Part shown: positions 2,991 to 60,652 of the stretch, piece after piece | How positions within the stretch are numbered: the first letter of the stretch is position 1 | How the letters are laid out: the number at the start of each line of letters is the position of its first letter | Source of the DNA: a virus | Direction: 5' to 3' (one strand) | IMG/VR virus record: IMGVR_UViG_3300034106_005922 | Span: 6,496 to 70,495 of that record | Length of the DNA stretch: 64,000 bases | Program-made: the position numbers and the translations under genes | The notes under the pieces: generated by a model | Told to the model about the DNA's origin: nothing | The model's input: only the letters and a program-made list of their open reading frames with translations | Database searches by the model: none

Positions 2991-3789
2991 ATATTCAATG
3001 CCAGATAATCCAAGGATCGTTAGCCAATTTAATAATTTTCCATTTGGATGTGGCGGAATTAGACCATTTTTAGATATAGCAAATGAAATAACAAATATAA
3101 CTATACCAGATTTTACTTTTTGGTATGTAGATCCAGATTATAATTTTCAAAATCCACCAGACGGATTAAATGAAAAAGATATAGTCTTTTATAAAGGAGA
3201 CGAACATTATAGAATACCGCAATGGCACAATCAATGTAAATTATTATTAAAACAAACAGTTACAAATCAATTTCCTTATAATATAATACATATCCCATTT
3301 TTATATGTTACGGATTTTATAAAATCCGCTTATATTCCATTTAACGAAAGGAAAATAGACGTTTTATTTACAGGTACTTGTTGGCCAGAAACTAATAGAA
3401 AATACATTATTGAATATTTAAAAAATAAATTAAAAGATTTAAATATAGTGATCAGCGAATTCATTGATACAAAAACATACTCTCATTTATTAGCTAATTC
3501 TAAAATATCTTTATGTCTAGATGGAAAATGGACACCAGAATGTAGTAGATTTTCAGAATCAATACAAGCAGGAACACTAGCCTTTTCTTCTGATTTATCT
3601 TATTCAAAATTATTCGATAATTGCCCCTACATAAAAACTGATTGGTCCAATCTAGATCAAGTCGTAGATCAAATATATTTTTATTTAAATAATAAAAACT
3701 CTGAAAAAATTTCCATAGAAGCTCATGATTTTTGGTTGAATAATTGGCATCCCAAGAAATGGGCCGAATTAATTTTAAGTAGAATTTAA
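2980..3789 (+). CDS. Exostosin/GT47-like or GT-B glycosyltransferase
   Basis: GDEHY, IDVLFTG, SKISLCLDG, SRFSESIQAG; paralogue of 1591-2394. Confidence 0.55.
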   Translation: MKIKYSMPDNPRIVSQFNNFPFGCGGIRPFLDIANEITNITIPDFTFWYVDPDYNFQNPPDGLNEKDIVFYKGDEHYRIPQWHNQCKLLLKQTVTNQFPYNIIHIPFLYVTDFIKSAYIPFNERKIDVLFTGTCWPETNRKYIIEYLKNKLKDLNIVISEFIDTKTYSHLLANSKISLCLDGKWTPECSRFSESIQAGTLAFSSDLSYSKLFDNCPYIKTDWSNLDQVVDQIYFYLNNKNSEKISIEAHDFWLNNWHPKKWAELILSRI

Positions 3790-4739
3790 TGATAATCGCT
3801 AAAACACCATTTAGGATTTCACTAGCGGGAGGATCTACCGATCTTGAGTCTTTTCTAGATTTGTATGGACAAGGATCTGTTATAAGTTTTCCTTGTAATC
3901 TTTATACATACATAACAATTTTTGACGATAAACTAGGCCTGAATTCTTATGATAAGAAATACATTATAGCATACTCTAAAAGAGAGGCGATCAATCAGGT
4001 AGATAAGATAAAAAATGATATAGCACGAATTATTTTAAAAAAATACAATGTAGCTCCAATTAACGCTACATTTAATTCTGATATATTCAGCTCAAATTGT
4101 GGATTAGCATCATCAAGCTCTTATACATTATCATTTTTAAATGCCATTTTAAAATTCAAAGAATTGAATTATTCTGAAGTTGATCTATGTAAAGAGGCTT
4201 TATCCATAGAAAGAGAATTTAACCCGTTAACTGGGCAACAAGACATATTCGGATGTGGAATAGGTGGGTTCAAAAAAATTGATTTTTTTAAAGATAAAAA
4301 TCCAACATTTAAATATCTTAATTCCGATATCTTTGATAGGTATGATTTTAGTTTAATATATACTGGCATATTGAGATCTTCAACTAATATATTGAAACAA
4401 ATAGACTCAAGAAAATCATTCTCATTACTTAATCTAGTACAAGAAATGGAAATAGCTATAGAAAAGAATAGGTATAAAGATTTTATATCTATAATAAAAG
4501 AAGGCTGGATAAAGAAAAAAGAATCAAATCCCAATATTATAGCAGATAAAGTGGTTAAAAAAATTGATCAAGATCTAGCAAATGATAAATCTATTTTAGC
4601 CCATAGATTGTGTGGCGCTGGAAATGGTGGATATTTTCTCGTAATAAAAGAAAAAACATCAAAAATAAATTTGAATACTAACTCTAATATTATTAACATA
4701 TCTTATGATAAAGAAGGATCAAGATCCTACAGGTTTTAA
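3789..4739 (+). CDS. hddA: GHMP-family sugar kinase, heptose-7-phosphate kinase-like
   Basis: KTPFRISLAGGSTD, GLASSSS, GQQD, LCGAGNGGY; adjacent to GmhA-like gene. Confidence 0.8.
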   Translation: MIIAKTPFRISLAGGSTDLESFLDLYGQGSVISFPCNLYTYITIFDDKLGLNSYDKKYIIAYSKREAINQVDKIKNDIARIILKKYNVAPINATFNSDIFSSNCGLASSSSYTLSFLNAILKFKELNYSEVDLCKEALSIEREFNPLTGQQDIFGCGIGGFKKIDFFKDKNPTFKYLNSDIFDRYDFSLIYTGILRSSTNILKQIDSRKSFSLLNLVQEMEIAIEKNRYKDFISIIKEGWIKKKESNPNIIADKVVKKIDQDLANDKSILAHRLCGAGNGGYFLVIKEKTSKINLNTNSNIINISYDKEGSRSYRF

Positions 4740-5253
4740 AAATAGCATTGATTCAATCAATAGATTGACCGCAAAAATAACTAATGTTGAATTAGTTAAT
4801 TTTAGGGAAACATTGTATGATTATGATAATATCATTATTATAGGAAATGGTGGTAGTAATTCAATAGCTAGTCATATTGCAGTAGACTATAATAAATTTC
4901 TCAAAAAGAAGACTCTTGCATTTACCGACGCATCAATGCTAACTGGATATTTTAATGATTATGGCCTTGAGCAAGTATACGTGAAATTTATTGAACAAAA
5001 TTTAACTAAAAAAACTTTAGTAATACTTATATCTTCATCTGGAAATTCCTTAAATATTTTGGAATGTGCAAATTTTTGTGAAAATAATAAAATAGCTTTT
5101 TGTTCTTTGACTGGTTTTAATAAAAATAATAAAGTAAAAGTAAAATCTGAAAAATCTAAAAACTGTAAGTTCAATTACTGGGTGGATTCAAAGAGCTACG
5201 GAGTCGTGGAGAATTGTCATCAAATATTCTTGCATGCAATTGTTGTAAATTAA
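4705..5253 (+). CDS. gmhA: SIS-domain phosphoheptose isomerase
   Basis: IGNGGSNSIASH, NDYG, ISSSGNSLNI, YGVVENCH. Confidence 0.8.
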   Translation: MIKKDQDPTGFKNSIDSINRLTAKITNVELVNFRETLYDYDNIIIIGNGGSNSIASHIAVDYNKFLKKKTLAFTDASMLTGYFNDYGLEQVYVKFIEQNLTKKTLVILISSSGNSLNILECANFCENNKIAFCSLTGFNKNNKVKVKSEKSKNCKFNYWVDSKSYGVVENCHQIFLHAIVVN

Positions 5254-5254
5254 T

Positions 5255-6583
5255 ATGAGATACTGCCTAGACCTAGATAATACAATCTGTATTACTCCTA
5301 AAAATGAATATGAAAAATCAACAATAATAGAAAAAGCTAAAAATTTAGTTAATAAATTATACGACAATGGAAATTATATTATTATAAATACAGCAAGGGG
5401 CGCATCTTCTGGCATAGATTGGACAGAGTTTACAAAAAAACAATTATCTGATTGGGGAGTAAAATATAACGAGCTTGTTACAAATAAAAAACCTAATGCA
5501 GATGTTTTTATTGACGACAAGAATATGTCTATAGAAGAATGGTATAATTCTGATAAATTTCCTAAAGGATTCATTGCTGGTACATTCGATATAGTCCATA
5601 ATGGATATATTAAATTCTTTGAATTTGCAAAAGAACATTGCAATAAATTGATGGTTGCAATACATGAAGATCCATCTTTAGAGAAAAATGAGAAAAGCAA
5701 ACCAATTCATACTTTAGAAGAAAGAATGGAAATTCTTAAATCAATTAAACACATAGATGAAATTCTGATATATCAAACAGAAGAAGATCTTCATGAATTA
5801 ATAAGATTAATGAAACCAAACGTAAGATTCTTGGATGAAAGTTATAAAAATAAAAAAATAACAGGCGAAAATTTATGCCCAATCATATATCATGAGAGGA
5901 AACATGATTACTCTTATACGAATTTAAGAAATAAAATTCTTGGTGGAGAAGCATTAACAAATAAAATCAATCAAATCATTTTAGATTTAGTAGAAAAAGA
6001 TAATGAAAATATTGATCTTCCAAATCCATTACCCAGTGAAATTTTAATAAATTCTTTTATGGACACCGCAATCTCTAATGTCACAGTTAAAGATGGTTTA
6101 ATTTTAGAATTTGGAGTTTATCAGGGTAGAACAATAAATTATATAGCTTCAAAATTTCCAAGCAATATAATATACGGATTTGATTCATTCGAAGGTCTTC
6201 CAGAAGAATGGAATGATAAAAATCCAAAAGGAATTTATACATTAAACGGTAATCTACCTAAAGTTGAAAAAAATGTTGAACTTATTAAAGGATGGTTTAA
6301 TGAAACATTACCTTCATTTATAAAAGAACATAAGAATCCAATTTCATTGTTACATGTAGATTGCGATATTTACTCATCTACCGTATGCGTTTTAGAGTCA
6401 TTAAAAGATCAAATCGTAGATGGAACAGTAGTTATATTTGATGAAATTTGGAAATATCCAAATTACAAAGAACATGAAATAAAAGCTTTTGCAGAATTTC
6501 TTTTAAAATATAATTTCAAATATGAATGCATCAGAACTCTCAAATCAAGATATGCGAAAGGAATATTTATATTAAAAAAATGA
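5255..6583 (+). CDS. Trifunctional fusion: HAD phosphatase + HxGH-type (TagD/HldC-like) nucleotidyltransferase + TylF/MycF-like methyltransferase
   Basis: CLDLDNTIC..KP..FIDDK; AGTFDIVHNGY..EERMEIL; LEFGVYQG..GFDSFEGLPE..HVDCDIYSST..FDE. Confidence 0.8.
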   Translation: MRYCLDLDNTICITPKNEYEKSTIIEKAKNLVNKLYDNGNYIIINTARGASSGIDWTEFTKKQLSDWGVKYNELVTNKKPNADVFIDDKNMSIEEWYNSDKFPKGFIAGTFDIVHNGYIKFFEFAKEHCNKLMVAIHEDPSLEKNEKSKPIHTLEERMEILKSIKHIDEILIYQTEEDLHELIRLMKPNVRFLDESYKNKKITGENLCPIIYHERKHDYSYTNLRNKILGGEALTNKINQIILDLVEKDNENIDLPNPLPSEILINSFMDTAISNVTVKDGLILEFGVYQGRTINYIASKFPSNIIYGFDSFEGLPEEWNDKNPKGIYTLNGNLPKVEKNVELIKGWFNETLPSFIKEHKNPISLLHVDCDIYSSTVCVLESLKDQIVDGTVVIFDEIWKYPNYKEHEIKAFAEFLLKYNFKYECIRTLKSRYAKGIFILKK

Positions 6584-9536: not shown

Positions 9537-9538
9537 TT

Positions 9539-10534: not shown

Positions 10535-11619
10535 AATATGATTTTTTAATAGTTGGATGTGGTTTATTTGGAGTAACCTTTGCCCAGCAAGCAAAAGAAA
10601 AAGGCAAGAGATGCTTAATTATTGACTCAAGGAATCATATTGGTGGAAATGTTTATACAGAAAATAAAGATGGTATTAATATTCATACTTATGGCCCGCA
10701 TATATTTCATACAAATAATGACGAAATATGGAACTACATAAATAAATTCACAAAGTTTAATTATTTCATCAATAGACCTAAAGTAAATTACAAAGATAAG
10801 CTTTATTCATTTCCAATTAATTTGTTTACCCTGTATCAACTTTGGGGAGTAAAAACCCCAGAAGAAGCTAAATTAAAACTAGAGTCAGTTAAAGTTAAAA
10901 TTGAAGAGCCTAAAAATCTTGAAGAATGGACCTTGTCCCAAGTCGGAGAAGAAGTTTACTATACTTTTATTCATGGATATACAAAGAAACAATGGAATAA
11001 AGAGCCCAAAGACCTTCCTTCTTTTATTATAAAAAGACTACCAATTAGATTAAATTTTGATGATAATTACTTTTTTGATAAATATCAAGGTATTCCAATT
11101 GGTGGTTATACCAAAATTATAGAAAATATGACAGACGGAATAGAGGTAATATTAAATGAAAACTATTTTGATAGAAGGGACTATTGGAATCAAAAAGCCG
11201 AGAAAGTTATTTTTACTGGTAAAATAGATGAATTTTATAATTATAAGTATGGGGAATTAGAGTATAGAAGTTTAGAATTTAAAACTGAAAGACATGAAAT
11301 TAAAGATTATCAGGGAAATGCCATTATAAACTATACGGATGAAAATATCCCATATACAAGAATATTAGAGCATAAGCATTTTGAATTTGGCGAGCAAGAG
11401 TATACCTATATAACTAAAGAATATCCAAATAATTGGGATAGAAATAAAATCCCTTATTATCCAATAAATAATGATAAAAATAATGATCTATATAAAAAAT
11501 ATAGACAAATAAGCGAAAAAGAGAATAATATACTATTCGGAGGAAGACTAGCAGAATATAGATATTACGACATGCACCAAATTATTGGCTCTGCACTACA
11601 AAAAAGTAAAAATATATAA
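10531..11619 (+). CDS. glf: UDP-galactopyranose mutase
   Basis: IVGCGLFG, HIGGN, YGPHIFHT, GYTKKQW, YQGIP, GRLAEYRYYDMHQ. Confidence 0.95.
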   Translation: MKYDFLIVGCGLFGVTFAQQAKEKGKRCLIIDSRNHIGGNVYTENKDGINIHTYGPHIFHTNNDEIWNYINKFTKFNYFINRPKVNYKDKLYSFPINLFTLYQLWGVKTPEEAKLKLESVKVKIEEPKNLEEWTLSQVGEEVYYTFIHGYTKKQWNKEPKDLPSFIIKRLPIRLNFDDNYFFDKYQGIPIGGYTKIIENMTDGIEVILNENYFDRRDYWNQKAEKVIFTGKIDEFYNYKYGELEYRSLEFKTERHEIKDYQGNAIINYTDENIPYTRILEHKHFEFGEQEYTYITKEYPNNWDRNKIPYYPINNDKNNDLYKKYRQISEKENNILFGGRLAEYRYYDMHQIIGSALQKSKNI

Positions 11620-12761
11620 TGAATACAAATTTTATAGAAACATATCATGGTAAAAAAATAGATACAGCAAATATTTTAAATATTGAAGATGCAAGTAAAC
11701 TTATAAAAGGCAGAAAAACAGTAGTAATAACTGGAGTAACAGGTCAAGATGGAAGTCATATGGCAGATTTTCTTTTGAAAAATACTGATCTATTGATTTT
11801 CGGAGGAGTCAGAAGACTTAGCGTATATAATCATGAAAACATTAAACACATTAAATCTGACAGATTTCATTTAATTAATTTTGATTTAACTGATTCCCAT
11901 GCAATAGCCCGAACAGTAGAAAAACTTCAACCAGATTATTTTATTAATTTTGCAGCTCAAAGTTTTGTAGCCAGCAGTTGGGATTTTGCGAAACAAACGT
12001 GGGCAACCAATTCAACAAGTGTTTTAGATATATTAGAAGCAATTAGACTTTATAAACCATCTTGTAGATTATATCAAGCTGGATCTAGCGAAGAATTTGG
12101 AAATGTATTATATAGCCCTCAAGACGAAAAACACCCATTAAGACCAAGAAGCCCATACGGAGCTAGTAAAGCTGCTTCTAGACAATTAATTAAAGTATAT
12201 AGAGATTCTTATAATCTTTATGCAATTCAAGGATGGCTATTTAATCATGAAGGCATTAGAAGAGGTGAGGAATTTGTAACTAGAAAAATTACTAAAAATA
12301 TAGCAAGAATACATAATGCTTTAAAAAATAATGAAGAATTTAAACCAATGGAACTAGGTAATATGGAAGCAAAAAGAGATTGGAGTGATGCAGAAGATTT
12401 TATAGAAGGCGTATGGATGATGCTAAATCAAGATAAATATAATTCAAATTATAATGGAATACCACAAGAATATGTATTTTCATCTAATGAAACCCATACT
12501 ATTAAAGAGTTCGTTGAAAAAGCTTTTAATATAGCTGGAATTAAAGGTAATTGGATAGGAGAAAACGAGCATACCATGTATGTATCAAATGACAAGAAAA
12601 TCTTAGTTCAAGTCAATCCTAAATTTTATAGACCAGCAGAAGTAGAATTATTATTAGGAAATTCAAATAAAGCAAGAGAAGAACTTAATTGGAAGCCAAA
12701 GATTTCATTTGACAAATTAATAGAAAAAATGGTATCATCAGACATTGATAATTTAAAATGA
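11619..12761 (+). CDS. gmd: GDP-mannose 4,6-dehydratase
   Basis: ITGVTGQDGS, AAQSFV, PRSPYGASK, FNHEG, EFVTRKI, RDW, RPAEV. Confidence 0.95.
   Translation: MNTNFIETYHGKKIDTANILNIEDASKLIKGRKTVVITGVTGQDGSHMADFLLKNTDLLIFGGVRRLSVYNHENIKHIKSDRFHLINFDLTDSHAIARTVEKLQPDYFINFAAQSFVASSWDFAKQTWATNSTSVLDILEAIRLYKPSCRLYQAGSSEEFGNVLYSPQDEKHPLRPRSPYGASKAASRQLIKVYRDSYNLYAIQGWLFNHEGIRRGEEFVTRKITKNIARIHNALKNNEEFKPMELGNMEAKRDWSDAEDFIEGVWMMLNQDKYNSNYNGIPQEYVFSSNETHTIKEFVEKAFNIAGIKGNWIGENEHTMYVSNDKKILVQVNPKFYRPAEVELLLGNSNKAREELNWKPKISFDKLIEKMVSSDIDNLK
12709..12738 (+). promoter_or_regulatory. sigma70-type promoter (TTGACA-18-TATCAT, extended TG)
   Basis: Inside the 3' end of gmd, upstream of 12758; same -10 as promoters at 15585 and 27926. 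Confidence 0.55.
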
Positions 12762-13390
12762 AAAAACTATTAACCTCACAAGAAAAAATATACGAATTTC
12801 ATGCTCCAAAAGATTTATTCGATAAAGCTTACGAGCAAGTATTAAAAATAAATTTTTATAAAAATGCACACAATAAAATTTCTATTGATGCTTCCAGAAA
12901 AGATCAACAACAAGAAGAAAAAAATCTAGCTAAAAATCCCAATTTTGACGAACTACATCAATGGTTTATGGAATGTATTCAAAAGGTTTCAGTTGATACT
13001 GGTTATGAATGTGATTTTAAAATTATTCATTCATGGGCGAATAAATCTGAAAAAGAAGAAAAACATCACGAACATAATCATCCTATGGCCGTAATAAGTG
13101 GAGTTTTTTATTTAACAACAGCTAGCGAAAATGGTGGAGGAGAAACTTATTACGTTTATAGTTCAAGTACTTGGGATAAAGCCTTTTTAAGATATATTCA
13201 TGAAGAAAAATATCTTATTAAACCAGAAGCGGGAAAATTAATACTTTTTCCTTCAATTCTCAATCATGGATGTCTTCCAAATAAAGAAGAAGACCCTAGA
13301 TATACAATAGCTTTTGATGCTTTTCCTTGTGGTCAATTAGGTACAATAGAAACACATGGGATAGATCTTGTTATTAGTGTCGTTAATTAA
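12758..13390 (+). CDS. 2OG-Fe(II) oxygenase (TIGR02466-like)
   Basis: SWAN..HHEHNHP..ISGVFY, PEAGKLILFPSILNH, RYTIAF. Confidence 0.8.
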   Translation: MKKLLTSQEKIYEFHAPKDLFDKAYEQVLKINFYKNAHNKISIDASRKDQQQEEKNLAKNPNFDELHQWFMECIQKVSVDTGYECDFKIIHSWANKSEKEEKHHEHNHPMAVISGVFYLTTASENGGGETYYVYSSSTWDKAFLRYIHEEKYLIKPEAGKLILFPSILNHGCLPNKEEDPRYTIAFDAFPCGQLGTIETHGIDLVISVVN

Positions 13391-19620: not shown

Positions 19621-20370
19621 ATGATACCTTTATTTAAATCTCATTATTCTTTAGGAAGATCCATTCTTACTCTAGAAGACAAGTCTGAAAGAGATGAATA
19701 TCCAGATTCTGTTATTCAAATAGCCAAACAAAATAAATTAAAAGAGATATTCTTAGTAGAAGATAATATGTCATCATTTCTTGAGGCTTATACAAATTGC
19801 AAAAACAATAATATTAAGTTGAATTATGGATTAAGAATTTCAGTCACAGAATCAATGAATGATAAAACAGACGAATCAAGAAATAAAAATTCAAAAATAA
19901 TCTTATTTTTTAAGAATAAAAAAGGATACGAATCATTAACAAAATTATTTAGTACTGCAGCTAAAGATGGTTTTTATTACGAGCCTAGATTAGATTACTC
20001 TATTTTAAAACAAAATTGGTCAGATAATTTAATTCTAGCTATCCCATTTTACGATTCTTTTATATTCAACAATACTTTAAAAAATAGCATTTGCGTGCCT
20101 CAATTTGATTTTACAAAACCAGTTATCTTTATAGAAAATAATGACTTACCTTTTGATTTAATAATTAAAGATAAAATGCTATCATTTGCTAAAGAGAATA
20201 AGCTAGAAATTTTTAATACTAAAAGTATTTATTACAATTCTAGGAAAGATTTTAAGACATATCTTACATTTAGATGCATTAACAATAGAAGTGTGTTGAA
20301 TAAACCAGAAATAGAACATATGAGTAGTAATGAATTTTGTTTTGAAAGTTGGGAAAATGAAAACTCTTGA
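19621..20370 (+). CDS. Stand-alone PHP domain of DNA polymerase III alpha (probably metal-site degenerate)
   Basis: FKSHYSLGRSILT, QIAKQNKL, IKLNYGL, KNKKGYESLTKL, YYEPRLD resemble the DnaE N-terminus. Confidence 0.8.
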   Translation: MIPLFKSHYSLGRSILTLEDKSERDEYPDSVIQIAKQNKLKEIFLVEDNMSSFLEAYTNCKNNNIKLNYGLRISVTESMNDKTDESRNKNSKIILFFKNKKGYESLTKLFSTAAKDGFYYEPRLDYSILKQNWSDNLILAIPFYDSFIFNNTLKNSICVPQFDFTKPVIFIENNDLPFDLIIKDKMLSFAKENKLEIFNTKSIYYNSRKDFKTYLTFRCINNRSVLNKPEIEHMSSNEFCFESWENENS

Positions 20371-20815
20371 GAAAAAAGTAAATAATTTCGGTGGAAAGAC
20401 TCGTCAAAGAGACGATAGGGAAGATAGATTAATAGATTATAGGTTATGGAAATATAAATTAAATAAACTCTATACTACAGACGTAGATCAGATTGAATGG
20501 CGAATTATTGATGGCCAAATGAAACCAGTCGCAGTTTTAGAAATGACCCGTATAGATGACGATAAAATTCCTGGACCAAATTACTTTAAAGCCATTATTA
20601 ATAGATTTGAAACAAGAGATACTCAAAAATATACAATAACACATGTGGCGAATTGTCTTAATGTAGATGTATATATTGTTGCTTTTTTAAAAAATTTAAG
20701 TTATTATATAGTATACAATCTCTCTAAAGGAGATAAGTGGGAAAAATATAATGAATATCAATATATTAATTGGTTACAAAACTTAGGGCAACAACCAGAT
20801 CCTTTTGATTTTTAA
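20357..20815 (+). CDS. PD-(D/E)XK-like protein
   Basis: TDVDQIEW..PVAVLEMT pattern; start likely ATG 20357. Confidence 0.4.
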   Translation: MKTLEKKVNNFGGKTRQRDDREDRLIDYRLWKYKLNKLYTTDVDQIEWRIIDGQMKPVAVLEMTRIDDDKIPGPNYFKAIINRFETRDTQKYTITHVANCLNVDVYIVAFLKNLSYYIVYNLSKGDKWEKYNEYQYINWLQNLGQQPDPFDF

Positions 20816-20816
20816 T

Positions 20817-21455
20817 ATGGACGAACATCTTTTAAGATATGACAATAAAAAAACTCTAGTCTTTATTGACTGTGAGACGTTTAATCTTTGCCTTAATTTT
20901 TGCCATAATATCCCATGGCAAATAGCGATGTTAAAAGTTCAAGGGGATAAAAAAATAGATCAAAAGAATTTTTATTTGAAATGGCAAACAGATTTAAAAA
21001 TTAGCCAAGATGCAGCAAGAATCACAAGATATGATCATAAAAAAGTTCAAAAAGAAGGACATGACCCAAAAGAAATATTTGCTACAATTAAGGATTGGTT
21101 AGATCATGCAGATTATATAATTGGGCACAATACTCTTGGATTTGATATTTATCTTATTAAGGAATATTATAAATATATGGGGTGTTCTTGGCAGCATCTT
21201 GTTAATAAATTTATTGATACAAATACAGTCGCAAGGGGTATAAAATATGGAATACCATATAATCCAAAAGAAAATCTTATTGAATATCAGTATAAAATCT
21301 ATCATACAAGAAAAAAAGGAGTCAAAAGCTCTTTGACAGCTTTAGGTAAAGAAAATGGAATTGAACATGATTATGAAAAACTTCATGATGCAATAAATGA
21401 TCTTGACTTAAACTTAAAAGTGTGGAATAAATTGAAATGGCAAATAGAGGTATAA
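20817..21455 (+). CDS. DEDDh 3'-5' exonuclease (DnaQ/epsilon-like)
   Basis: FIDCET, GHNTLGFD, LHDAINDL; start likely ATG 20817. Confidence 0.85.
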   Translation: MDEHLLRYDNKKTLVFIDCETFNLCLNFCHNIPWQIAMLKVQGDKKIDQKNFYLKWQTDLKISQDAARITRYDHKKVQKEGHDPKEIFATIKDWLDHADYIIGHNTLGFDIYLIKEYYKYMGCSWQHLVNKFIDTNTVARGIKYGIPYNPKENLIEYQYKIYHTRKKGVKSSLTALGKENGIEHDYEKLHDAINDLDLNLKVWNKLKWQIEV

Positions 21456-21456
21456 C

Positions 21457-21681
21457 ATGGCATCATTAGACGATATATATGATATGACACAGAAACTAGA
21501 AGAGAATAATATTGATTATCTTCTAATCACTGTAACCAAAGGAAAGAAACAAGGTAAAGCTGACGTTTTCTTTTCTTTAAGAGATAAAACTTCAATGAAG
21601 ATACTAGCAACTGGGTTAGATGCATTTAATAAGGAAATAGATAATATAGAAAGAGAGCAAGAAGAGGATTCAGATGAATAA
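21457..21681 (+). CDS. Small acidic hypothetical protein
   Basis: 74-aa ORF coupled between exonuclease and dnaE. Confidence 0.6.
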   Translation: MASLDDIYDMTQKLEENNIDYLLITVTKGKKQGKADVFFSLRDKTSMKILATGLDAFNKEIDNIEREQEEDSDE

Positions 21682-24256
21682 TCATTTAGAAGATAAAGTA
21701 TTTTCAGATAAATTTGATAATACAGACTTGGGCCTACATGGAGTCAGACTTCCAGAATTTTCAATAGATTCATCTCTTAAAAGACATTTAAATATTAGCG
21801 AAGATGTTTCCAACTATGATTTTTTAAGAGCATTAGCTTTAAATGGATTTAAAAAATTAAACATAGACAAAAACAATAAAGACTATAAAAAGTATATTGA
21901 TAGAGCTAAATACGAACTAGATACTTTAAAAGAATTAGGGTTTATTGATTATATTTTATTAGTTTGGGATGTTATTAACTTCTGTAAGACTAGCGATATT
22001 CCAATAGGACTAGGTAGAGGTTCAGCAGCAGGATCATTAATTTTATATCTTATTGGAGTAACTAGAATTGATCCAGTAAAATATGACCTTTATTTTGAAA
22101 GATTTATATCCAAGATTCGAGCTAAAAAGCAAGTTATCGATGGTATAACATATTTAGATGGTAGTTTAATGTGTGACGTAGATATTGATATTTGTTATTA
22201 TAATCGCCAAAAAGTACTTCAATATTTAGAAACAAAATTTAAAGGTAAAACTAGCAAAATCTTAACACTAAATACTCTTAGTGGAAAACTACTTATTAAA
22301 GAGTGCGGAAAGATCGTCGGTGAAAAAAGCGAAGAAGAGATGACAAATATTTCCTCATTAATTCCTAAAGTTTATGGTCAAGTTAAAGATATCAATATTG
22401 CTTATGAAGAAGTAGAAAAATTTAAAGATTGGTGTGATGAGAATAAAGAAACATTTCAAATTGCTTTAAAATTAAGAGATTTAATCAAGAATAAAGGAGT
22501 TCATCCATCTGGAGTTCTTCTTTCTTATTATGATTTAGAAACAGTATGTCCAACAGAATTTTCTTCTGATAAAGAACCAGTTTCTAGTTTTGATATGAAC
22601 TGGGTAAGCATATTTAATATCAAACTTGATATTCTAGGCTTAAGAAGTGTTTCTGTAGTAGATGACGTTTGTAAAAATATTGGTATTAAAGTAGAAGATA
22701 TTGATTTGAATCATGAATCTATTTATAGGAATTTGAAAGAATTAAGATCGCCTCATGGACTATTTCAAATTGAAGCAGAAACTAATTTTAGAGTTTGCCA
22801 AAAAGTAAAACCAAAAAATCTAGAAGAACTAAGTGGAGTATTAGCTTTAGCAAGACCTGGAGCATTACAATTCGTAGACAAGTACGCTGCTCACACGAAT
22901 TATCAGCAATCAGAAAGTATTCATCCATTTTTCGATGAGATTTTAAAAGAAACTGGTGGAGTAGCTTTGTATCAAGAGCAGTTAATGAAGATGGCTCATA
23001 AAATTGGGTTCACTCTTGACGAAGCAGAAATCTTAAGAAGAATCGTTGGTAAAAAGAAAACTGAAGAAATCAAAGCATGGAAGAAAAAGATTGAATCAAA
23101 GATTAAAGAAAATAAAATTCCAAAAGAAGTAGGAGAAATTCTCTGGAAAATTCTAGAGGATTCAGCAAACTATTCATTTAATAAGAGCCATTCGTTAGCT
23201 TACGCAGCTTTAGCAGCAGTTACAATTTATTTAAAATTTAATTATCCACAGCAATTCTTTTTATCTTTATTAAAGATGAGTAGAAATGAGCCAGACCCAA
23301 TTGGCGAAATTTCCAAGATTCAAAAAGAGATGCATGAATTTGATATCAAACTTCTTCCACCTCATATTATTAAATCACAGATGGATTTCTCAATAGAAGA
23401 CAAAGACATTAGATTTGGTTTATTGTCAATTAAGGGTATTAGCGATAAGTCGATTGAAAAGCTCAATAGTTTTAGAAATAAATATTCTAATAAATTTGAA
23501 ATATTTCAAGCAGCAGAAGAAGCCAATCTTAATATTGGAGTGTTATCTTCTTTAATTCAAGCTGGAGCGTTGAGTGGTTTTAATCAATCTAGAAGTAAAA
23601 TTGTACTAGAAGCTCAATTATGGAATATATTAACTGCAAAAGAAAAGAAATATTCTATTTCATTTGCTGAAAAGTTTGATTATGATTTAATTAAAATCAT
23701 TAAACATCTTAATAAGTTTACTGATGAAAAGAGTAATGTAGTTATTAAAGATGCAAGATTAAATACTATTAAGACTAAATATGAACCATATCTTCAAATT
23801 TATAATCAAAATAGTAAAAGTGAAAGTTTTGCTAATTGGTATTACGAAAAGAAACTCTTGGGATATACTTATAACAAGAATCTAAGAGATATTTTTGCCG
23901 AGAAAAGAGAAAATCTCAAATATATAAGTGATATTATTGATGAACAAGTAAATACTAAAGTAGCTTTAGTAGGACAAATTGAAGAAGTTTACACTGGCGT
24001 TTCTAAAAATGAAAAGAAAACTAGATATGTAAGGTTAAAGATATCAGACGAAACATCAGCAATCAGCGTATTAATATTTAATGATAATATTGAAAATAAT
24101 AAACTATTAAACAACAAAGCCTTTGAAGAAGGTAATATTGTGATAGCGAAAGGCTCAAAAAGAGATGATTGTATATTTGGAGATTTAATAGCTATTCAAG
24201 ATCATCAAATATACATGAAGTTGAATGATTTAAAAAAGATTGATAAAAATAATTGA
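21674..24256 (+). CDS. dnaE: DNA polymerase III alpha catalytic core lacking PHP
   Basis: GRGSAAGSL, FERFI, CDVDID, HPSGV, KLDILGL, LYQEQLM, YSFNKSH, IRFGL..IKG, C-terminal OB fold. Confidence 0.93.
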   Translation: MNNHLEDKVFSDKFDNTDLGLHGVRLPEFSIDSSLKRHLNISEDVSNYDFLRALALNGFKKLNIDKNNKDYKKYIDRAKYELDTLKELGFIDYILLVWDVINFCKTSDIPIGLGRGSAAGSLILYLIGVTRIDPVKYDLYFERFISKIRAKKQVIDGITYLDGSLMCDVDIDICYYNRQKVLQYLETKFKGKTSKILTLNTLSGKLLIKECGKIVGEKSEEEMTNISSLIPKVYGQVKDINIAYEEVEKFKDWCDENKETFQIALKLRDLIKNKGVHPSGVLLSYYDLETVCPTEFSSDKEPVSSFDMNWVSIFNIKLDILGLRSVSVVDDVCKNIGIKVEDIDLNHESIYRNLKELRSPHGLFQIEAETNFRVCQKVKPKNLEELSGVLALARPGALQFVDKYAAHTNYQQSESIHPFFDEILKETGGVALYQEQLMKMAHKIGFTLDEAEILRRIVGKKKTEEIKAWKKKIESKIKENKIPKEVGEILWKILEDSANYSFNKSHSLAYAALAAVTIYLKFNYPQQFFLSLLKMSRNEPDPIGEISKIQKEMHEFDIKLLPPHIIKSQMDFSIEDKDIRFGLLSIKGISDKSIEKLNSFRNKYSNKFEIFQAAEEANLNIGVLSSLIQAGALSGFNQSRSKIVLEAQLWNILTAKEKKYSISFAEKFDYDLIKIIKHLNKFTDEKSNVVIKDARLNTIKTKYEPYLQIYNQNSKSESFANWYYEKKLLGYTYNKNLRDIFAEKRENLKYISDIIDEQVNTKVALVGQIEEVYTGVSKNEKKTRYVRLKISDETSAISVLIFNDNIENNKLLNNKAFEEGNIVIAKGSKRDDCIFGDLIAIQDHQIYMKLNDLKKIDKNN

Positions 24257-24281
24257 CATTTAATTATAGTTGATATAATAT
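24253..24281 (+). promoter_or_regulatory. sigma70-type promoter (TTGACA..TGaTATAAT)
   Basis: Upstream of ATG 24289; -35 overlaps the dnaE TGA stop. Confidence 0.65.
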
Positions 24282-24288: not shown

Positions 24289-24831
24289 ATGATTTCATTC
24301 TATAAACCAAACAGCAAAAATACTGGAACAGCTTGCAGCTTTACAGTAAATACAAAAGATGCCTCTATATGGGGTTCATTAATTAAACAATCTTCTTGGA
24401 ATGATGCCAAGAAGATAGGTTCATTTTCAGAGAATCAAAATAATCCAAGCAAAAGCGTCAAAATCAAGTTCTCTTTAACTGAGGCAGCTGGAATTTTAGA
24501 TTCAATTGAAAGAAATGTAGAATTTTCTGCTTATCATAGTTCTGAAAAACAAACTACAAGAATTAAGTTTTGTCCATATATTAAAGATGATAAACAAGTA
24601 GGATATTCTTATTCAGTAAATAAAGAGGATAAGCAAAATAGCGAAAATAAGCAATCTTATTTAATTGGCTTTTATTTTAATGAAGCTTCTCTTATTAAAG
24701 AATTTTTAAAATTCGCACTACATTCAACATTTCATCAACAAGAAGTAGAAAACATTAAAAGATTGAAGAATAGAAAGACTGAATCTACTGACTCAACATC
24801 AAATGTAGACGCAGAAGGCGATCTTTGGTGA
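24289..24831 (+). CDS. Putative ssDNA-binding protein, Whirly/PC4-like
   Basis: Position after dnaE, acidic-aromatic tail DAEGDLW, twice-repeated beta-strands-then-helix pattern. Confidence 0.5.
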   Translation: MISFYKPNSKNTGTACSFTVNTKDASIWGSLIKQSSWNDAKKIGSFSENQNNPSKSVKIKFSLTEAAGILDSIERNVEFSAYHSSEKQTTRIKFCPYIKDDKQVGYSYSVNKEDKQNSENKQSYLIGFYFNEASLIKEFLKFALHSTFHQQEVENIKRLKNRKTESTDSTSNVDAEGDLW

Positions 24832-26753
24832 ATAAAAAGAAAAAAGTTTTAATACAAACTGATTTTTCCCTAGCCAAAACAGGGTTCGGGAGAAATGCAA
24901 AAACTCTTTTAAAATATTTATATAATTCAAATAAATATGATTTAGTTCATTATTGCTGTGGAATGCCTTGGAGTCATCCAGAATTAAAAAGAACTCCATG
25001 GAAATCAATTGGATCATTACCAGACACACAACAAGAATTAGAGCTTCTAAATAGAGATCCAAATTTAGCTAGAATGGCAAGCTATGGCGCGCATTATCTA
25101 GATAGAATTATTGATCAAGAGAAACCAGACGTATATATTGCTGTTCAAGATATTTGGGGAGTTGACTTCGCCATAGATAAACCTTGGTTTAATAAAATAA
25201 ATTCTGTTATTTGGACGACTTTAGACTCATTACCGATATTGGATTCAGCAATTTCTTGCGCACCAAAAGTTAAAAATTATTGGATTTGGAGTAATTTTGC
25301 TACGAAAGCATTAAATAGCATGGGATACAAACACATTAAGACTGTGCATGGGTGTTTAGAGTCTAAGGATTTTTATAGATTATCAGATTTTGATAGAAAA
25401 AAATTAAGAAATAAATACAACTTACCCCAAGACGCATTTATAATTGGTTTCGTTTTCAGAAATCAATTGAGAAAAAGTGTTCCTAATCTTTTAGAAGGAT
25501 ATGCCCTATGGAAAAAAGAAAATCCAGATATTAAAAATACATTTTTACTTCTTCACACTCATTGGGGAGAAGGATGGAATATTCATAAACTCTGTAAAGA
25601 ATTAAATGTAAATCCAGCAGAAGTATTAACTACTTATATATGTAAAAATTGCGGAGAGTATGAAATTAAGAATTTTACGGGCCAAGATTTAAATTGTAAA
25701 TATTGTGGGGAAGAAAAAAGTCAAACGACCACAAATGTTAGTATTGGAGTTACAGAGCAGCAATTAAATGAAGTTTATAATTTAATGGATGTATATTGTC
25801 ATCCATTTACTAGTGGAGGACAAGAGATTCCAATTCAAGAAGCTAAACTTACAGAATTAATTACTTTAGTTACAAATTATTCATGTGGCGAAGAGATGTG
25901 CGAAAAAGACGCTGGCTCTATTCCACTAGAATGGTCGGAGTATAGAGAGCATGGCACAGAGTTTAGAAAAGCCTCTACCTACCCAACTTCTATAGCTAAG
26001 AATTTAAATAAAGTATATAAAATGTCTAAAGCTGAAAAAGTAGAAATGGGCAAAAAAGCAAGAGAATGGACAATTAAAAATTATTCAGTAGAATCTGTAG
26101 GTTCAACTATAGAAAATTTTATAGACAAGTCCGAAAACACAAACTTTGAATTTTCAAATTCTCAAATTGAAAGAAACCCTAATGCAGTTGTACCAGAAAT
26201 AAAAGAGAATAAGGATTGGATTTTATATCTATATCATAATATTCTTTGTCTTAAAAATATTAACGAAAATGATTCTGGATTCATTTACTGGATGGATCAA
26301 CTTGCAAAAGGGGCTTCTAGAAATGATGTAGAATCATATTTTAGAAAAGTTTCCACAGAAGACTTGAATAAAAATAAACAAATTCCATTTGAAGAAATTT
26401 TAGGTAAAGATGATGATGGAAAAAGATTATTACTAGTTATGCCAGAAAGTGCTGGTGATGTATTCATGGCTACAAGTTTACTTCCATCAATTAAAAAGAT
26501 GTATCCAGAATATAATATATATTTTGCAACAAAACAGGAATACTTTTCTATTCTAAATGGTAATGAATATATTTATAAAACCATTCCTTATATCCAACAA
26601 ATGGATAATTTGATGTGGTTAGAAGGCGCTGGCGACCATAAAGGATTTTTTGAAATTGCATTTTTACCACATCTAGGTACTCAAAGAGTTTTGAATTATC
26701 TCCATAATGGAAAAGATAAAATAGAATTTAATATTAAAAATAATAATATATAA
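24825..26753 (+). CDS. GT4 glycosyltransferase with Zn-ribbon insert, DUF4214-like helical domain and GT9 N-terminal half
   Basis: TGFGR, RNQLRK, HPFTSGGQEIPIQEA; CKNC..CKYC; LYHNIL..DSGFIYWMDQL..SRNDV; MPESAGDVFMATSLLPSIKKMYP. Confidence 0.75.
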   Translation: MVNKKKKVLIQTDFSLAKTGFGRNAKTLLKYLYNSNKYDLVHYCCGMPWSHPELKRTPWKSIGSLPDTQQELELLNRDPNLARMASYGAHYLDRIIDQEKPDVYIAVQDIWGVDFAIDKPWFNKINSVIWTTLDSLPILDSAISCAPKVKNYWIWSNFATKALNSMGYKHIKTVHGCLESKDFYRLSDFDRKKLRNKYNLPQDAFIIGFVFRNQLRKSVPNLLEGYALWKKENPDIKNTFLLLHTHWGEGWNIHKLCKELNVNPAEVLTTYICKNCGEYEIKNFTGQDLNCKYCGEEKSQTTTNVSIGVTEQQLNEVYNLMDVYCHPFTSGGQEIPIQEAKLTELITLVTNYSCGEEMCEKDAGSIPLEWSEYREHGTEFRKASTYPTSIAKNLNKVYKMSKAEKVEMGKKAREWTIKNYSVESVGSTIENFIDKSENTNFEFSNSQIERNPNAVVPEIKENKDWILYLYHNILCLKNINENDSGFIYWMDQLAKGASRNDVESYFRKVSTEDLNKNKQIPFEEILGKDDDGKRLLLVMPESAGDVFMATSLLPSIKKMYPEYNIYFATKQEYFSILNGNEYIYKTIPYIQQMDNLMWLEGAGDHKGFFEIAFLPHLGTQRVLNYLHNGKDKIEFNIKNNNI

Positions 26754-26754
26754 T

Positions 26755-27933
26755 ATGCATATTCTAGAACAATACGCTTTAAATTGTGGAGTATCAATTT
26801 CTAAACCATACATAAGTGAAGAATTTTTCCCACTACCGTTTGAGAAATATATAACATTACATCCAAAGGGAAAATTCCCATCTAGAGAATACGACCATTG
26901 GGAAGAAGTAACAACTAATTTATTTCCTATTTTAGAAAAACATAATATTAAAATAGTTCAAGTCGGAGGAAAAGAAGATCAACCTATACCTTTTTGCTAT
27001 CCAACAAATGGACAAACTAATTTAAATAATTTAGCATATTTAATTAAAAATTCATTACTTCACGTTGGTATAGATAGTCTCCCAATTCATTTCGCTTCAG
27101 CATTTGATAAGAAAATAGTTGGACTTTACTGTAATATGTATCCAAATCAATCTGCACCATATTGGTCTTCTTCTGAGGATTGTGATTTATTATTTGCAGA
27201 TTTGAAAGGCAAAAAACCATCTTATGCAGCCTTCGAAAACCCAAAAACGATCAATACTATAAAACCAGAAGACATTGCTAATAGTGTTCTTAAAAAATTA
27301 AATATTAATGAAACTATTAAAAATAAAACAATTTATTTTGGAGATGCTAGCTTTATAAGATCTATAGAAATTATTCCAGATCATGTTCCTAATTTGTCCT
27401 CATTTAATATAGATATAGCAAATGTGCGAATGGATTATCATTTTAATGAAATGTTTTTATTCAATATATTAAGCGTATACAAGGCCAACGTCTTAACTGA
27501 CAAAGCTATTAATATAAATGAATTAGTTAAATTTAAGAACAATATTCTTCATGTTTATTTTATTATTAATGATGAATCAAACTTTGATATTAAATTTATA
27601 GAAAATTTAAAAAATAATGGAATAAAATTCTCTATATTATCTTTTATTCCAGAAGATAAAATAGAAAAGATCAAAATTCATACCATGGACTTTTGTAATA
27701 TTATTGTAAAAAATCTGGAAAATAATAAAGATATCATTAAATCTTTTAATAAAAATAATTTAAAATTTAAATCAAGTAAAATACTTTTAAGTCAAGGTAA
27801 AATGTATCCTTCTTTTGATAATTTTAAATCAAATACAAGCTATAAACAGTCATTACATGAGCATTTTGATTTTCAAAATAATGGTGATCTTTATAAAGAA
27901 TTAGAGAATTTATATATTTTTAGTATTGACTAA
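26755..27933 (+). CDS. GT9 (heptosyltransferase-like) C-terminal half plus unknown domain
   Basis: YITLHP..REYDHW, VQVGG, GQTNLNNLAYLI..HVGIDSLPIHFASAFDKKIVGLY. Confidence 0.7.
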   Translation: MHILEQYALNCGVSISKPYISEEFFPLPFEKYITLHPKGKFPSREYDHWEEVTTNLFPILEKHNIKIVQVGGKEDQPIPFCYPTNGQTNLNNLAYLIKNSLLHVGIDSLPIHFASAFDKKIVGLYCNMYPNQSAPYWSSSEDCDLLFADLKGKKPSYAAFENPKTINTIKPEDIANSVLKKLNINETIKNKTIYFGDASFIRSIEIIPDHVPNLSSFNIDIANVRMDYHFNEMFLFNILSVYKANVLTDKAININELVKFKNNILHVYFIINDESNFDIKFIENLKNNGIKFSILSFIPEDKIEKIKIHTMDFCNIIVKNLENNKDIIKSFNKNNLKFKSSKILLSQGKMYPSFDNFKSNTSYKQSLHEHFDFQNNGDLYKELENLYIFSID

Positions 27934-27960: not shown

Positions 27961-28761
27961 ATGAGTCCAAAAATCAAAGCAGAAGAAAATACAATTTCAA
28001 TTGGAAGTTCGGAATTATTTGAATCCGTAGTAATCTCAGAACAAAAGCAAGAAATTGCTCAAGTAATCCCGCCTAATCTATTCACAAGGAATAAATATGG
28101 CCTTATTGAAGATAAGGGGCTCAATTATATATTTAATGATGATGGTACAATTAATTGGCGTAAAATGATCAAAACAGAGCATCTTGTTCCAAACAGACAG
28201 AAAACACAAGAAACAGATGTTTCTAAACTTCAAGACAAAGATTTACTCATTCTTCTTGGTGGTATCAAAGAACTTGCTCAAATCCGTGGATATACAAGTG
28301 TCGAATATAAAGTAGTCGCAGCTTCTGAGAGTTACTTTGCAACAAGCTGTAAAATTACTTGGTTACCAAATTATGAAACTGGTGGAAAAGAAATTATTTT
28401 TGAATCTCTTGCTGATGCTACAGTAAACAACACGAAGAGTTTCGCCAGATTCTTTTTGGCTGCAATTGCTGAAAATCGAGCTTTTGTTAGATGCGTAAGG
28501 AATTTCTTAAAAATTAATATTGTATCTCAAGAAGAACTTGGAGATGCTAAATTAATAGATGATTCAGTATCTCAAAATGATAATCCAACTTCTCCTCATG
28601 CTCTATTAGAAAAAGTAATGAAAGATAAAAGTATTAACTTTGATCAATTAAAGAAAAAATTAATTAAAGAAAAATTCGATAATGCAGAAAACTTAAATTC
28701 AATTTCTGATATTCCTAAAGCTAAAATTTTTGAGCTTATAGAAAGAATTAAAAAAGTTTAA
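27961..28761 (+). CDS. Putative Rad52/Sak-fold single-strand annealing protein
   Basis: LLGGIKELAQIRG..AIAENRAFVRCVRNFLKI..SQEEL pattern typical of SSAP folds. Confidence 0.5.
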   Translation: MSPKIKAEENTISIGSSELFESVVISEQKQEIAQVIPPNLFTRNKYGLIEDKGLNYIFNDDGTINWRKMIKTEHLVPNRQKTQETDVSKLQDKDLLILLGGIKELAQIRGYTSVEYKVVAASESYFATSCKITWLPNYETGGKEIIFESLADATVNNTKSFARFFLAAIAENRAFVRCVRNFLKINIVSQEELGDAKLIDDSVSQNDNPTSPHALLEKVMKDKSINFDQLKKKLIKEKFDNAENLNSISDIPKAKIFELIERIKKV

Positions 28762-57005: not shown

Positions 57006-57008
57006 AAA

Positions 57009-57383: not shown

Positions 57384-57391
57384 ATAATAAA

Positions 57392-57397
57392 TTACAC
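57392..57397 (-). promoter_or_regulatory. GTGTAA putative late-promoter motif
   Basis: 8 nt before ATG 57383. Confidence 0.65.
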
Positions 57398-57419
57398 TTT
57401 AATTAATTTTAAAATTAAA

Positions 57420-60623: not shown

Positions 60624-60652
60624 TAAATAATCTCCATATGTATTTTACTTAT

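Follow-up and report, generated by a model that had tools for sequence, protein, structure and literature searches.

The DNA considered here is a 64,000-nucleotide (nt) stretch of a virus, positions 6,496 to 70,495 of IMG/VR record IMGVR_UViG_3300034106_005922, and the term window refers to that whole stretch. Its GC content is low (about 25-34% over most of the length) and its source is a large, uncultured tailed phage from an aquatic setting. The subject of the analysis is a pair of neighbouring open reading frames (ORFs), ORF1 and ORF2, over which the two lobes of a single glycosyltransferase (GT) of family GT9 appear to be distributed, with the N-terminal lobe forming the tail of ORF1, behind a GT4-like enzyme, and the C-terminal lobe forming the front of ORF2. 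In window coordinates the pair is made up as follows.

24825..26753, plus strand: ORF1, 642 amino acids (aa) from a TTG start, or 641 aa if GTG 24828 is the start
24825..26144, plus strand: GT4-like (retaining-type GT-B) domain, ORF1 residues about 1-440
25641..25706, plus strand: Cys4 insert, Zn-ribbon-like (C273, C276, C291, C294), within the GT4-like domain
26205..26342, plus strand: DUF4214-like helical linker, ORF1 residues 461-506
26418..26714, plus strand: GT9 N-lobe, ORF1 residues 532-630, with Asp545 in an E-S-x-G-D loop
26751..26757, plus strand: split point, comprising the ORF1 TAA (26751-26753), one base and the ORF2 ATG, which is in a different frame
26755-27933, plus strand: ORF2, 392 aa, ATG start
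26755..27309, plus strand: ORF2 residues 1-185, linker helix and GT9 C-lobe (nucleotide-sugar side)
27310..27930, plus strand: ORF2 C-terminal alpha/beta domain, residues 186-392, 207 aa

The GTG at 24828 and the upstream gene's stop codon share the tetranucleotide GTGA, and database relatives of ORF1 are annotated at 641 aa. Much of this layout had been proposed by an earlier account made from the DNA letters and their translations, referred to below as the sequence-only reading. Its two ORFs are where it put them and its CKNC..CKYC insert at 25641-25706 coincides with the four listed cysteines. The order that it gave for the 642-aa protein (GT4, DUF4214-like segment, GT9 N-half) was recovered, with the GT4 and DUF4214 matches falling under their Pfam cut-offs, as was its description of the next ORF as a GT9 C-half followed by about 200 aa without assignment.

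What identifies these proteins as the two halves of one GT9? The principal evidence comes from profile-profile comparison by hhalign with a reference set of nine single-chain GT9 proteins (297-351 aa) from five cellular draft genomes. ORF1 residues 532-630 align with GT9 positions 2-110 (97.8% probability, E-value (E) 1e-12) and ORF2 residues 28-185 align with positions 170-337 (98.0% probability, E 1.6e-13), such that the halves are complementary, do not overlap and stand in the canonical order. Between them are 39 residues (ORF1 631-642 and ORF2 1-27) as opposed to about 59 in the canonical enzyme (GT9 111-169). The residues that define a GT9 are likewise divided between the chains, with the Asp of the G-D loop on ORF1 and the donor motifs on ORF2. 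Because the lobes are on two proteins in the window and at 74 of 74 related loci, rather than together in one polypeptide of about 320-350 aa, the pair is, on sequence grounds, best classed as a split variant of GT9 and not as a canonical member of the family.

The C-lobe on ORF2 is recognised by the GT9 family model PF01075 over residues 29-139 (38 bits against a cut-off of 22; model positions 103-223 of 247), and in the PDB the best profile match of ORF2 is 1psw (E 2e-5). The top Foldseek matches of ORF2 are WaaF (1psw, E 1.4e-6), a Veillonella GT9 (3tov), TibC (4rap) and WaaC, with 6dfe and 2h1f also among them, and each match covers some 170-205 columns corresponding to the front half of the protein. 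At the level of families the best matches are the lipopolysaccharide (LPS) heptosyltransferases I, II and III and RfaQ. The donor-side residues are retained across 30 relatives, with K/R44 and H112 present in all 30 and D107 and S108 in 29 each. Beyond residue 185 lies the alpha/beta domain, which is modelled with confidence (pLDDT, the predicted local distance difference test, of 91.8) and in which R225, D227 and K307 are invariant. Searches with its fold returned nothing significant from the PDB (best E 1.2e-3, TM up to 0.40, the partial matches being TIM-barrel/radical-SAM-like), BFVD (best E 1.0e-3) or the ESM Atlas (at most 0.84). A radical-SAM/TIM-barrel identity was rejected, as the matches are weak and partial and the domain has only one Cys in the window protein, and hence no radical-SAM Cys cluster.

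For the N-lobe on ORF1 it was profiles that gave matches, a single-sequence PDB search with residues 521-642 having returned nothing. The first 57 positions of four NCBIfam heptosyltransferase models match ORF1 531-588 in register, albeit weakly (E 0.003-0.08), and the best PDB match for a profile of 25 relatives is again 3tov, over its residues 9-63 (a weak E of 0.035). Asp545, the candidate catalytic base, is invariant in all 25 aligned relatives and aligns with the invariant Asp of canonical GT9s. ORF1 alone does not match PF01075, since that model begins late in the N-lobe. When the N-lobe profile was run against 1.84 billion representatives, 1,709 were found at E <= 0.001 (50%-identity cluster level), and in 140 of the best 150 of these the match ends no more than 30 residues from the protein C-terminus. 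Homologues of ORF1 number at least 3,533 at E <= 0.001 among 8,000 candidates scored.

The rest of ORF1 is a different transferase. PF00534 reaches 22.4 bits on the window protein, under its cut-off of 26.4, yet PHROG 2170 (glycosyltransferase) matches residues 7-435 (E 5.5e-13), essentially from end to end of the domain, and it is because of this combination that the N-terminal 440 residues are taken to be a divergent GT4-like GT-B. PF00534 is above cut-off in a fused relative, P0241 (31.1 bits), many relatives have a precomputed PF00534 match, and GT4 enzymes in the PDB give weak profile matches to ORF1 (E 0.06-0.15). The Cys4 insert matches Zn-ribbon families only weakly (E 0.17-0.34). The full set of four Cys is present in 21 of the 25 relatives aligned, the other four (L023, L035, L062 and L079) retaining just the first, and the insert is also lost in P0241, so that a Zn ribbon cannot be essential to the core job of the protein. 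The helical linker scores 20.8 bits with PF13946 (DUF4214; E 4.2e-4) against a cut-off of 23.2, and the same family passes in the relatives P0241 (28.2 bits) and P0244 (31.6 bits).

Conservation of the split was followed in a synteny set of 80 distinct IMG/VR contigs that encode a relative of ORF2 at 37-100% identity. The arrangements found are as follows.

64 loci: ORF1 relative directly upstream, with gaps of -20 to +15 nt in 13 geometries and all three frame relations
8 loci: an extra gene of 213-232 aa between the ORF1 and ORF2 relatives
2 loci: other arrangements (in L019 ORF1 is broken into 502 + 116 aa; in L062 there is a 205-nt gap)
6 loci: no ORF1 inside the locus (L022, L033, L034, L053, L059, L081)
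0 loci of 80: fused

Thus the split is kept at every one of the 74 loci that have both genes, an outcome that the sequence-only reading had named as a check on its proposal. As none of these 74 is fused and the 64 adjacent pairs vary in geometry, the break is judged from the sequences to be real and not an assembly error. The extra gene (L026 4352-4999 and L042 4356-4997; also L027, L032, L045, L046, L047 and L082) was tested in L026 and L042, where it matches Anp1/GT62 (38.7-40.3 bits against a Pfam cut-off of 28.8), so that a third transferase can also be inserted at the split point. The break in the ORF1 of L019, whether a real one or a sequencing error, makes a separate ORF of 116 aa out of the GT9 N-lobe, and the L016 homologue of ORF1, with the same two possible origins, matches in two frames.

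The relatives of ORF2 share a Met-His start and a common length (268-438 aa among 120 listed of 307), and an N-terminal extension is found in none of 11 aligned. Both proteins are under clear purifying selection. Median identities over 50 middle-distance relatives are 88% for the polymerase encoded upstream, 67% for the 180-aa gene that precedes ORF1 and 77% for the 266-aa gene that follows ORF2, while within the pair they are 73% for the GT4-like domain, 61% for the GT9 N-lobe, 51% for the GT9 C-lobe and 34% for the ORF2 C-domain. With medians of 73% and 34% at its two extremes, the constant end of the putative machine is the GT4 domain and the variable end is the ORF2 C-domain.

Single-chain relatives are also known. 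P0241 (1,037 aa) corresponds through its residues 5-629 to ORF1 4-626 (41% identity) and through its residues 634-1035 to ORF2 3-389 (30% identity), with a gapless junction that PF01075 spans at 618-776. Two viral contigs, L107 and L108, carry its open frame at the DNA level with an identical fusion point; at 8001-11114 it is intact in L107 and undergoes a frame change about 25 codons before the end in L108 (1,014 aa). Of the others, P0354 has GT4, DUF4214 and a whole GT9 with nothing thereafter, its record possibly being cut at the contig end, P0388 has GT4, GT9 and GT2, P0242 (1456 aa) has GT4-GT9-GT2, and P0260 has a whole GT9 and an ORF2-type C-domain. P0242 also carries a LAGLIDADG-type intein in its GT4 domain, identified by Pfam Intein_splicing, LAGLIDADG_3 and Hint and lying, by eye, within a conserved glycosyltransferase motif. 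All five fused clusters keep the N-lobe before the C-lobe, in canonical order, and in some a GT2 takes the place of the ORF2 C-domain. The fused form is rare, accounting for 4 of the 150 best representatives plus P0242, and every example is distant from the window. The sequence-only reading had allowed that fused genes in relatives would point to an assembly error. The fused forms found share just 30-41% identity with the pair and the close and middle-distance relatives are all split, so that the single-chain proteins are better viewed as Rosetta stones for a functional link between the halves than as a sign of misassembly in the window.

The way in which the two proteins might come together was approached by complex prediction with ORF1 525-642 and the whole of ORF2, each given as an alignment, in three runs and with three controls. 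The interface score (ipSAE) is 0.74 (0.73-0.76 across the runs) compared to 0.00 for the best control, on a measure whose benchmark mark is reached by 58 of 80 solved complexes and by 2 of 110 mismatched pairs. At least 94% of contacts are shared between the runs, and pLDDT for the partner is 83 or higher. The predicted interface involves the placement of the ORF2 helix 1-21 on the ORF1 lobe and of the ORF1 loop 542-545 against ORF2 108-116, together with ORF2 89-91, and in these models it is the usual GT-B cleft. Such modelling had been suggested in the sequence-only reading, and in the prediction the C-terminal part of ORF1 and ORF2 did dock in a GT-B-like cleft.

The mechanism that is favoured here is that of a two-subunit glycosyltransferase complex with a composite GT9 site. 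ORF1 would provide a complete GT4-like GT-B, a DUF4214-like linker and an acceptor-side GT9 N-lobe with the catalytic Asp, and ORF2 would supply the interdomain helix and the nucleotide-sugar-binding GT9 C-lobe, followed by its variable alpha/beta domain. The GT9 active site would then be present only in the cleft made by the docking of ORF2 on the ORF1 tail, a physical assembly that is at this stage predicted by the models. Composite docking of this kind would bring two transferase sites into one complex, with a GT4-type and a GT9-type site side by side, probably for the addition of two successive sugars to one acceptor. The two-subunit, two-active-site enzyme put forward in the sequence-only reading agrees with the complementary halves, the divided residues, the split at 74 of 74 loci, the single-chain relatives and the complex prediction, and on that basis a composite enzyme is regarded as probable, a level of confidence that covers the mechanism and not the acceptor.

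Several points weigh against this mechanism. The complex score may reflect likeness to GT9s rather than real binding, because single-chain GT9 structures have already been solved. ORF2 modelled alone by AlphaFold is a compact two-domain protein (pLDDT 89.8, pTM 0.85), the window ORF1 stays below the PF00534 cut-off, and in 6 of the 80 loci the ORF2 homologue has no adjacent ORF1. ORF1 was not found in three of the records to which such orphan loci belong (G002, G003 and G004, which are 79%, 10% and 14% complete, respectively). In another, the complete 178-kb genome G001, which alone among the six records is complete enough to place ORF1 outside the locus, an ORF1 relative lies about 40 kb from the ORF2 relative, placed directly after the polymerase and a 188-aa gene.

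The self-sufficiency of ORF2 when modelled, the orphan loci, the separation in G001 and the invariant polar residues R225, D227 and K307 of the ORF2 C-domain would all suit two independent enzymes, in which the alpha/beta domain of ORF2 replaces the N-lobe and the tail of ORF1 is structural or vestigial. This alternative is held to be improbable. The GT9 catalytic Asp is ORF1 D545, invariant in the 25 relatives, the tail that carries it is well conserved at a median 61% identity, the predicted interface is the canonical GT-B cleft and the ORF2 C-domain has no structural match resembling a GT-B N-lobe. Moreover, the five single-chain relatives join the lobes in canonical order and each of five complete or near-complete genomes (146-209 kb) has exactly one strong match to each half. 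That the break reflects faulty sequencing or assembly or a pseudogene, or is bypassed by programmed frameshifting or readthrough, has in its favour the single base between stop and start, the +1 difference in frame and the existence of single-chain relatives, and is highly improbable in the face of 0 fusions in 74 loci, 13 geometries from -20 to +15 nt in all three frame relations, a whole gene in between at eight loci, a 40-kb separation in a complete genome, ORF2 homologues with a conserved start and length and clear purifying selection on both proteins.

In five of the orphan loci (L034 not being among those inspected) the ORF2 homologue is preceded by a deaminase-like gene (66-165 aa) and a 113-132-aa hydrophobic protein; by Pfam, dCMP_cyt_deam_1 is found in L081 only and a weak DUF1360 match in L081 and L022 only. 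In L081 a homologue of the 266-aa gene of the window still adjoins the ORF2 homologue on its downstream side. A model in which one ORF1 scaffold serves several exchangeable ORF2 paralogues found no support, given one strong ORF2 match per genome in five of five. Second, weak matches to the ORF2 C-lobe (E ~1e-4) occur in two complete relatives, at G005:C1:53215-53550 and G007:C1:110804-110992, and the ORFs concerned (268 and 261 aa) may be further GT9-C-lobe-like proteins.

As for the wider distribution of the pair, a DNA-level search against 50,697 phage records gave no match, and a protein-level search of the phage collection gave none for ORF2 and three distant GT matches for ORF1, with no cultured relative found. 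In cellular genome collections there are 21 ORF1 homologues (L086-L106), all in metagenome-assembled or uncultured drafts and 20 of them labelled as metagenome-assembled genomes, on contigs of 1.6-211 kb assigned to many phyla. Flavobacteriales and other Bacteroidota account for 11 of the 21, and the other bin labels include Bacteriovoracaceae, Cellvibrionales, Verrucomicrobiota, Pseudomonadales and one Promethearchaeota bin. These are most likely phage contigs binned with cells and were left aside in considering the host, although the excess of Bacteroidota might be a hint at the host.

The split GT-B glycosyltransferases that are known belong essentially to the Alg13/Alg14 and EpsE/EpsF lineage. 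In the account given in PMC8993221, the N-lobe chain of Alg13/Alg14 and EpsF/EpsE-type enzymes is the acceptor side and the C-lobe chain holds the nucleotide-sugar pocket, with the active site between them; the split form predominates, some lineages having re-fused independently. The phage pair resembles these enzymes in that one GT-B is carried on two polypeptides and in that division is usual and fusion exceptional. It differs in that the pair is GT9 whereas Alg13/Alg14 is GT1/GT28, and searches at E up to 1 gave no Pfam match to Alg13 (Glyco_tran_28_C) or Alg14, the best families being GT9 and GT1/4. Further differences are that the N-lobe is here fused to the C-terminus of another complete glycosyltransferase instead of being a free membrane anchor, and that the C-lobe protein has an extra 207-aa domain, is phage-encoded and looks soluble by eye. 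The pair is thus modelled as working like the Alg13/Alg14 family, with a shared active site, without being a member of it.

The closest likeness in fold is to WaaC and WaaF (PDB 2h1f, 2gt1, 6dfe, 1psw), which together with 3tov are the best profile and structural matches for both halves. Conserved features are the GD catalytic loop, a basic residue that follows the first strand of the C-lobe and the D-S/T-G...H motif. WaaC and WaaF each consist of one chain of about 320-350 aa and have Kdo2-lipid A as their substrate. Here the chain is broken near GT9 position 120-140, and the stretch between the halves (GT9 111-169) is about 20 residues shorter. A protein-modifying relative is TibC, for which PMC4358343 describes a GT9-like GT-B that heptosylates protein serines, with an N-lobe reduced to four strands and a Cys4 metal finger inserted in the catalytic domain, and that consists of one chain with an N-terminal beta-barrel that forms dodecamers. 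TibC (PDB 4rap, 4rb4) is among the Foldseek matches of ORF2 at ranks 6 and 17, which reflects a likeness in C-lobe fold. In contrast to TibC/AAH, in which the finger is in the GT9 domain, the Cys4 of the phage pair is in the GT4-like domain, and no beta-barrel was seen.

Viruses that glycosylate their own particles provide a looser parallel. Giant algal viruses have their own multi-domain glycosyltransferases and sugar pathways, Freeman and colleagues reportedly described in 2023 the glycosylation of mycobacteriophage virions by phage-encoded glycosyltransferases, and the proteins decorated in such systems are those of capsid and tail. As in these systems, the transferases considered here are virus-encoded with several transferase domains joined together, a likeness by description that does not imply homology. 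In full-text literature, a scope that excludes subscription journals and supplementary tables, nothing was found on a split GT9 or a GT4-DUF4214-GT9 architecture in phages.

The surroundings of the pair bear on its possible role, and the gene order after the polymerase is a 180-aa gene, ORF1, ORF2, a 266-aa gene and then one minus-strand gene. The main features of the window outside the pair are the following.

623-13390: sugar-metabolism cluster, 13 kb, the first block of the window
3789..6583, plus strand: putative heptose-activation trio, three consecutive genes assigned by best matches only
3' of the sugar cluster, plus strand: replication module (RecA-like, DnaB-type helicase, ThyX, primase, exonuclease, DNA polymerase III alpha)
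19621-20370: polymerase N-terminal/PHP part, 249 aa, PHROG DNA polymerase
20330-20815, 20805-21455 and 21457-21681: three small genes dividing the polymerase pieces
21674-24256: polymerase core, 860 aa, Pfam DNA_pol3_alpha, finger, HHH_6 and OB
24289..24831, plus strand: upstream gene, 180 aa, acidic aromatic C-terminal tail, stop overlapping the ORF1 start
27961..28761, plus strand: downstream gene, 266 aa, conserved
from 29609: lambda-type distal tail genes, 1.7 kb from the GT pair
from 38325 on, minus strand: 2,300-aa tape measure and fibre-like proteins

The sugar cluster encodes a GHMP kinase, a SIS isomerase, a cytidylyltransferase-like/methyltransferase fusion, epimerases, a GT17-like enzyme, an FkbM methyltransferase, a UDP-galactopyranose mutase, a GDP-mannose dehydratase and a 2-oxoglutarate (2OG) oxygenase, and it ends about 11.4 kb from the GT pair, close to the 12 kb that had been claimed. 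Within 19621-24256 of the window the gene for DNA polymerase III alpha is divided in two. The pair had been described as sitting inside the replication operon: it does belong to that string of genes, although at its 3' end, with the distal tail genes just 1.7 kb away. A homologue of the 180-aa gene precedes the ORF1 homologue in every locus inspected. The naming of the two flanking genes as a single-strand-binding protein and an annealase could not be confirmed, since neither the 180-aa nor the 266-aa gene has any family or PDB match in the Pfam, PHROG, NCBIfam and PDB scans, and for Sak/Rad52 there are only ESM Atlas leads of 0.88-0.89, under the 0.9 threshold. A sigma70-type promoter had also been proposed. 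There is a near-consensus site (TTGACA / 17 nt / TAATAT) at 24253-24281 in the 32-nt gap between the polymerase and the 180-aa gene; in the promoter and terminator scan the region holds 74 such promoter-like sites and shuffled sequences hold 74.0 +/- 7.5, which is chance level, and the promoter claim was therefore dropped. The 'moraphage' jumbo-phage lineage was rejected as the identity of the virus, as those phages have contractile tails (PMC12619734), in contrast to the lambda-type tail-tip genes and tape measure of the window.

With regard to the sugar donor, NDP-heptose (NDP, nucleoside diphosphate) had been proposed, and the activation trio within the window gives this part of the sequence-only reading some substance. 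The best matches of the three genes are an HddA-type heptose-7-P kinase (E 7.7e-26), a GmhA isomerase (E 3.9e-14) and an RfaE domain II adenylyltransferase (E 7.4e-19), all under curated cut-offs. The kinase was recovered from G009, the closest relative (89% identity), which serves as a positive control, and was not found in six other related records; the isomerase was not found in the five of those six that were searched, a result without a positive control. What tells against a general heptose donor is that neither kinase nor isomerase occurs in any of the five complete or near-complete relatives in which the GT pair is retained, and for this reason heptose is not secure as the donor. Since the clade of the window encodes its own heptose-activation genes, NDP-heptose is probably the donor there, and in relatives without those genes the donor would be host-made or a different sugar.

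What, then, is the acceptor? In order of preference, the candidates are virion or tail proteins, which are proposed tentatively, the host envelope glycolipid (the LPS core), which is unlikely, and DNA, which is more doubtful again. The first of these, the cytoplasmic modification of virion or tail proteins made by the phage itself, is the leading candidate while falling short of an even chance, and the evidence points to it weakly. TibC provides an example of a GT9-like enzyme with protein serines as its acceptor, the distal tail genes begin 1.7 kb from the pair, [ST]G pairs are 3-6 times as frequent in tail and fibre proteins as in the enzymes, and the window has a 13-kb multi-sugar cluster with methyltransferases and further GTs. 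Set against this, an excess of [ST]G is a common property of fibre proteins and no evidence links the enzymes to any particular acceptor, and ORF1 is translationally coupled to a gene of the replication module, an arrangement that suits an early or DNA-related role too. In the fibre-like proteins at 53577-62091 (minus strand) the density is 3-6.5 [ST]G per 100 aa versus about 0-1.4 in most enzymes, and one of the fibre-like proteins, of 1,142 aa, has a collagen-like G-P-x-G-P-S-G-A-I repeat near residue 55.

The host glycolipid would be a target if the phage altered the LPS core or capsule, for example against superinfection or the loss of progeny on debris. LPS core assembly likewise combines a GT9 (WaaC/WaaF) with a GT4 (WaaG). 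Among solved structures, the LPS heptosyltransferases WaaF and WaaC come nearest to the ORF2 C-lobe, the best family matches are of the same kind, and both proteins, like peripheral LPS-core enzymes, look soluble by eye, with no long hydrophobic stretch. In addition, the strong conservation of the GT4 domain would make sense if the acceptor were a conserved inner core. The opposing evidence is that no homologue lies on a contig shown to be cellular, the 21 draft-genome matches fitting mis-binned phage contigs, and that the pair is part of the core of a phage lineage in which it is linked to replication and tail genes and not to lysogeny genes; it would also be expected that new LPS made late in a lytic cycle replaces an existing surface only slowly. 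Host glycolipid is accordingly ranked as unlikely, below the virion proteins.

DNA, the other target named in the sequence-only reading, would require a replisome-linked hypermodification in which bases are glycosylated and the Cys4 insert binds DNA. ORF1 overlaps the stop of the gene after the DNA polymerase in a linkage that is conserved, orphan ORF2 homologues adjoin a dCMP deaminase, and the GT4 domain, at 73% median identity, is conserved to a degree near that of the replication genes on either side (67% upstream, 77% downstream) and under that of the polymerase (88%). There is also precedent, in that Pyle et al. (bioRxiv 10.1101/2023.12.21.572611) describe phage GT-B enzymes that put heptose or other sugars on 5-hydroxymethylcytosine (5hmC), some of them transferring heptose with the help of a phage kinase and cytidylyltransferase. 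In that same description the 5hmC GT clusters adjoin either a C5 methyltransferase and 5mYOX or a ThyA-type hydroxymethylase, and the system considered here is set apart from them by the absence of such acceptor-making enzymes from the window and from three of four complete relatives. The ThyA family (PF00303) is found in one of four complete relatives with the pair (control positive in 10 of 14) and C5 DNA methyltransferase (PF00145) in none of four (control positive in 9 of 14); TET/JBP (PF12851) is also found in none of four, with a control that was silent everywhere, which makes the result uninformative. None of these enzymes is among the window ORFs scanned, where the thymidylate synthase is ThyX, and no T4 beta-GT-like structure is among the ORF2 structural matches listed (about 26 ranks, with gaps). 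The proposed role of the Zn ribbon in DNA binding finds no support given the loss of the insert in four of 25 relatives and P0241. It is because the enzymes that make hydroxymethyl-pyrimidines are missing from complete relatives that DNA is disfavoured and considered improbable as the target. A variant that does away with this precursor, in which a replisome-coupled DNA glycosyltransferase is translated together with a single-strand-binding protein, uses a novel acceptor chemistry and forms its GT9 site only on DNA, is rated marginally lower still.

The significance of the pair lies in the fact that GT9 would have reached a split solution independently of the Alg13/Alg14 lineage, and with a twist, in that the acceptor lobe is placed on the end of a complete transferase such that assembly of the second site would also tie two enzymes together. 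The family is abundant, with its at least 3,533 ORF1 homologues and 1,709 N-lobe representatives, and occurs once per genome in five of five relatives searched. If the acceptor is DNA or host LPS the complex would be relevant to defence evasion or receptor masking, and if the acceptor is the virion it would represent a widespread phage-encoded protein glycosylation machine in aquatic viruses.

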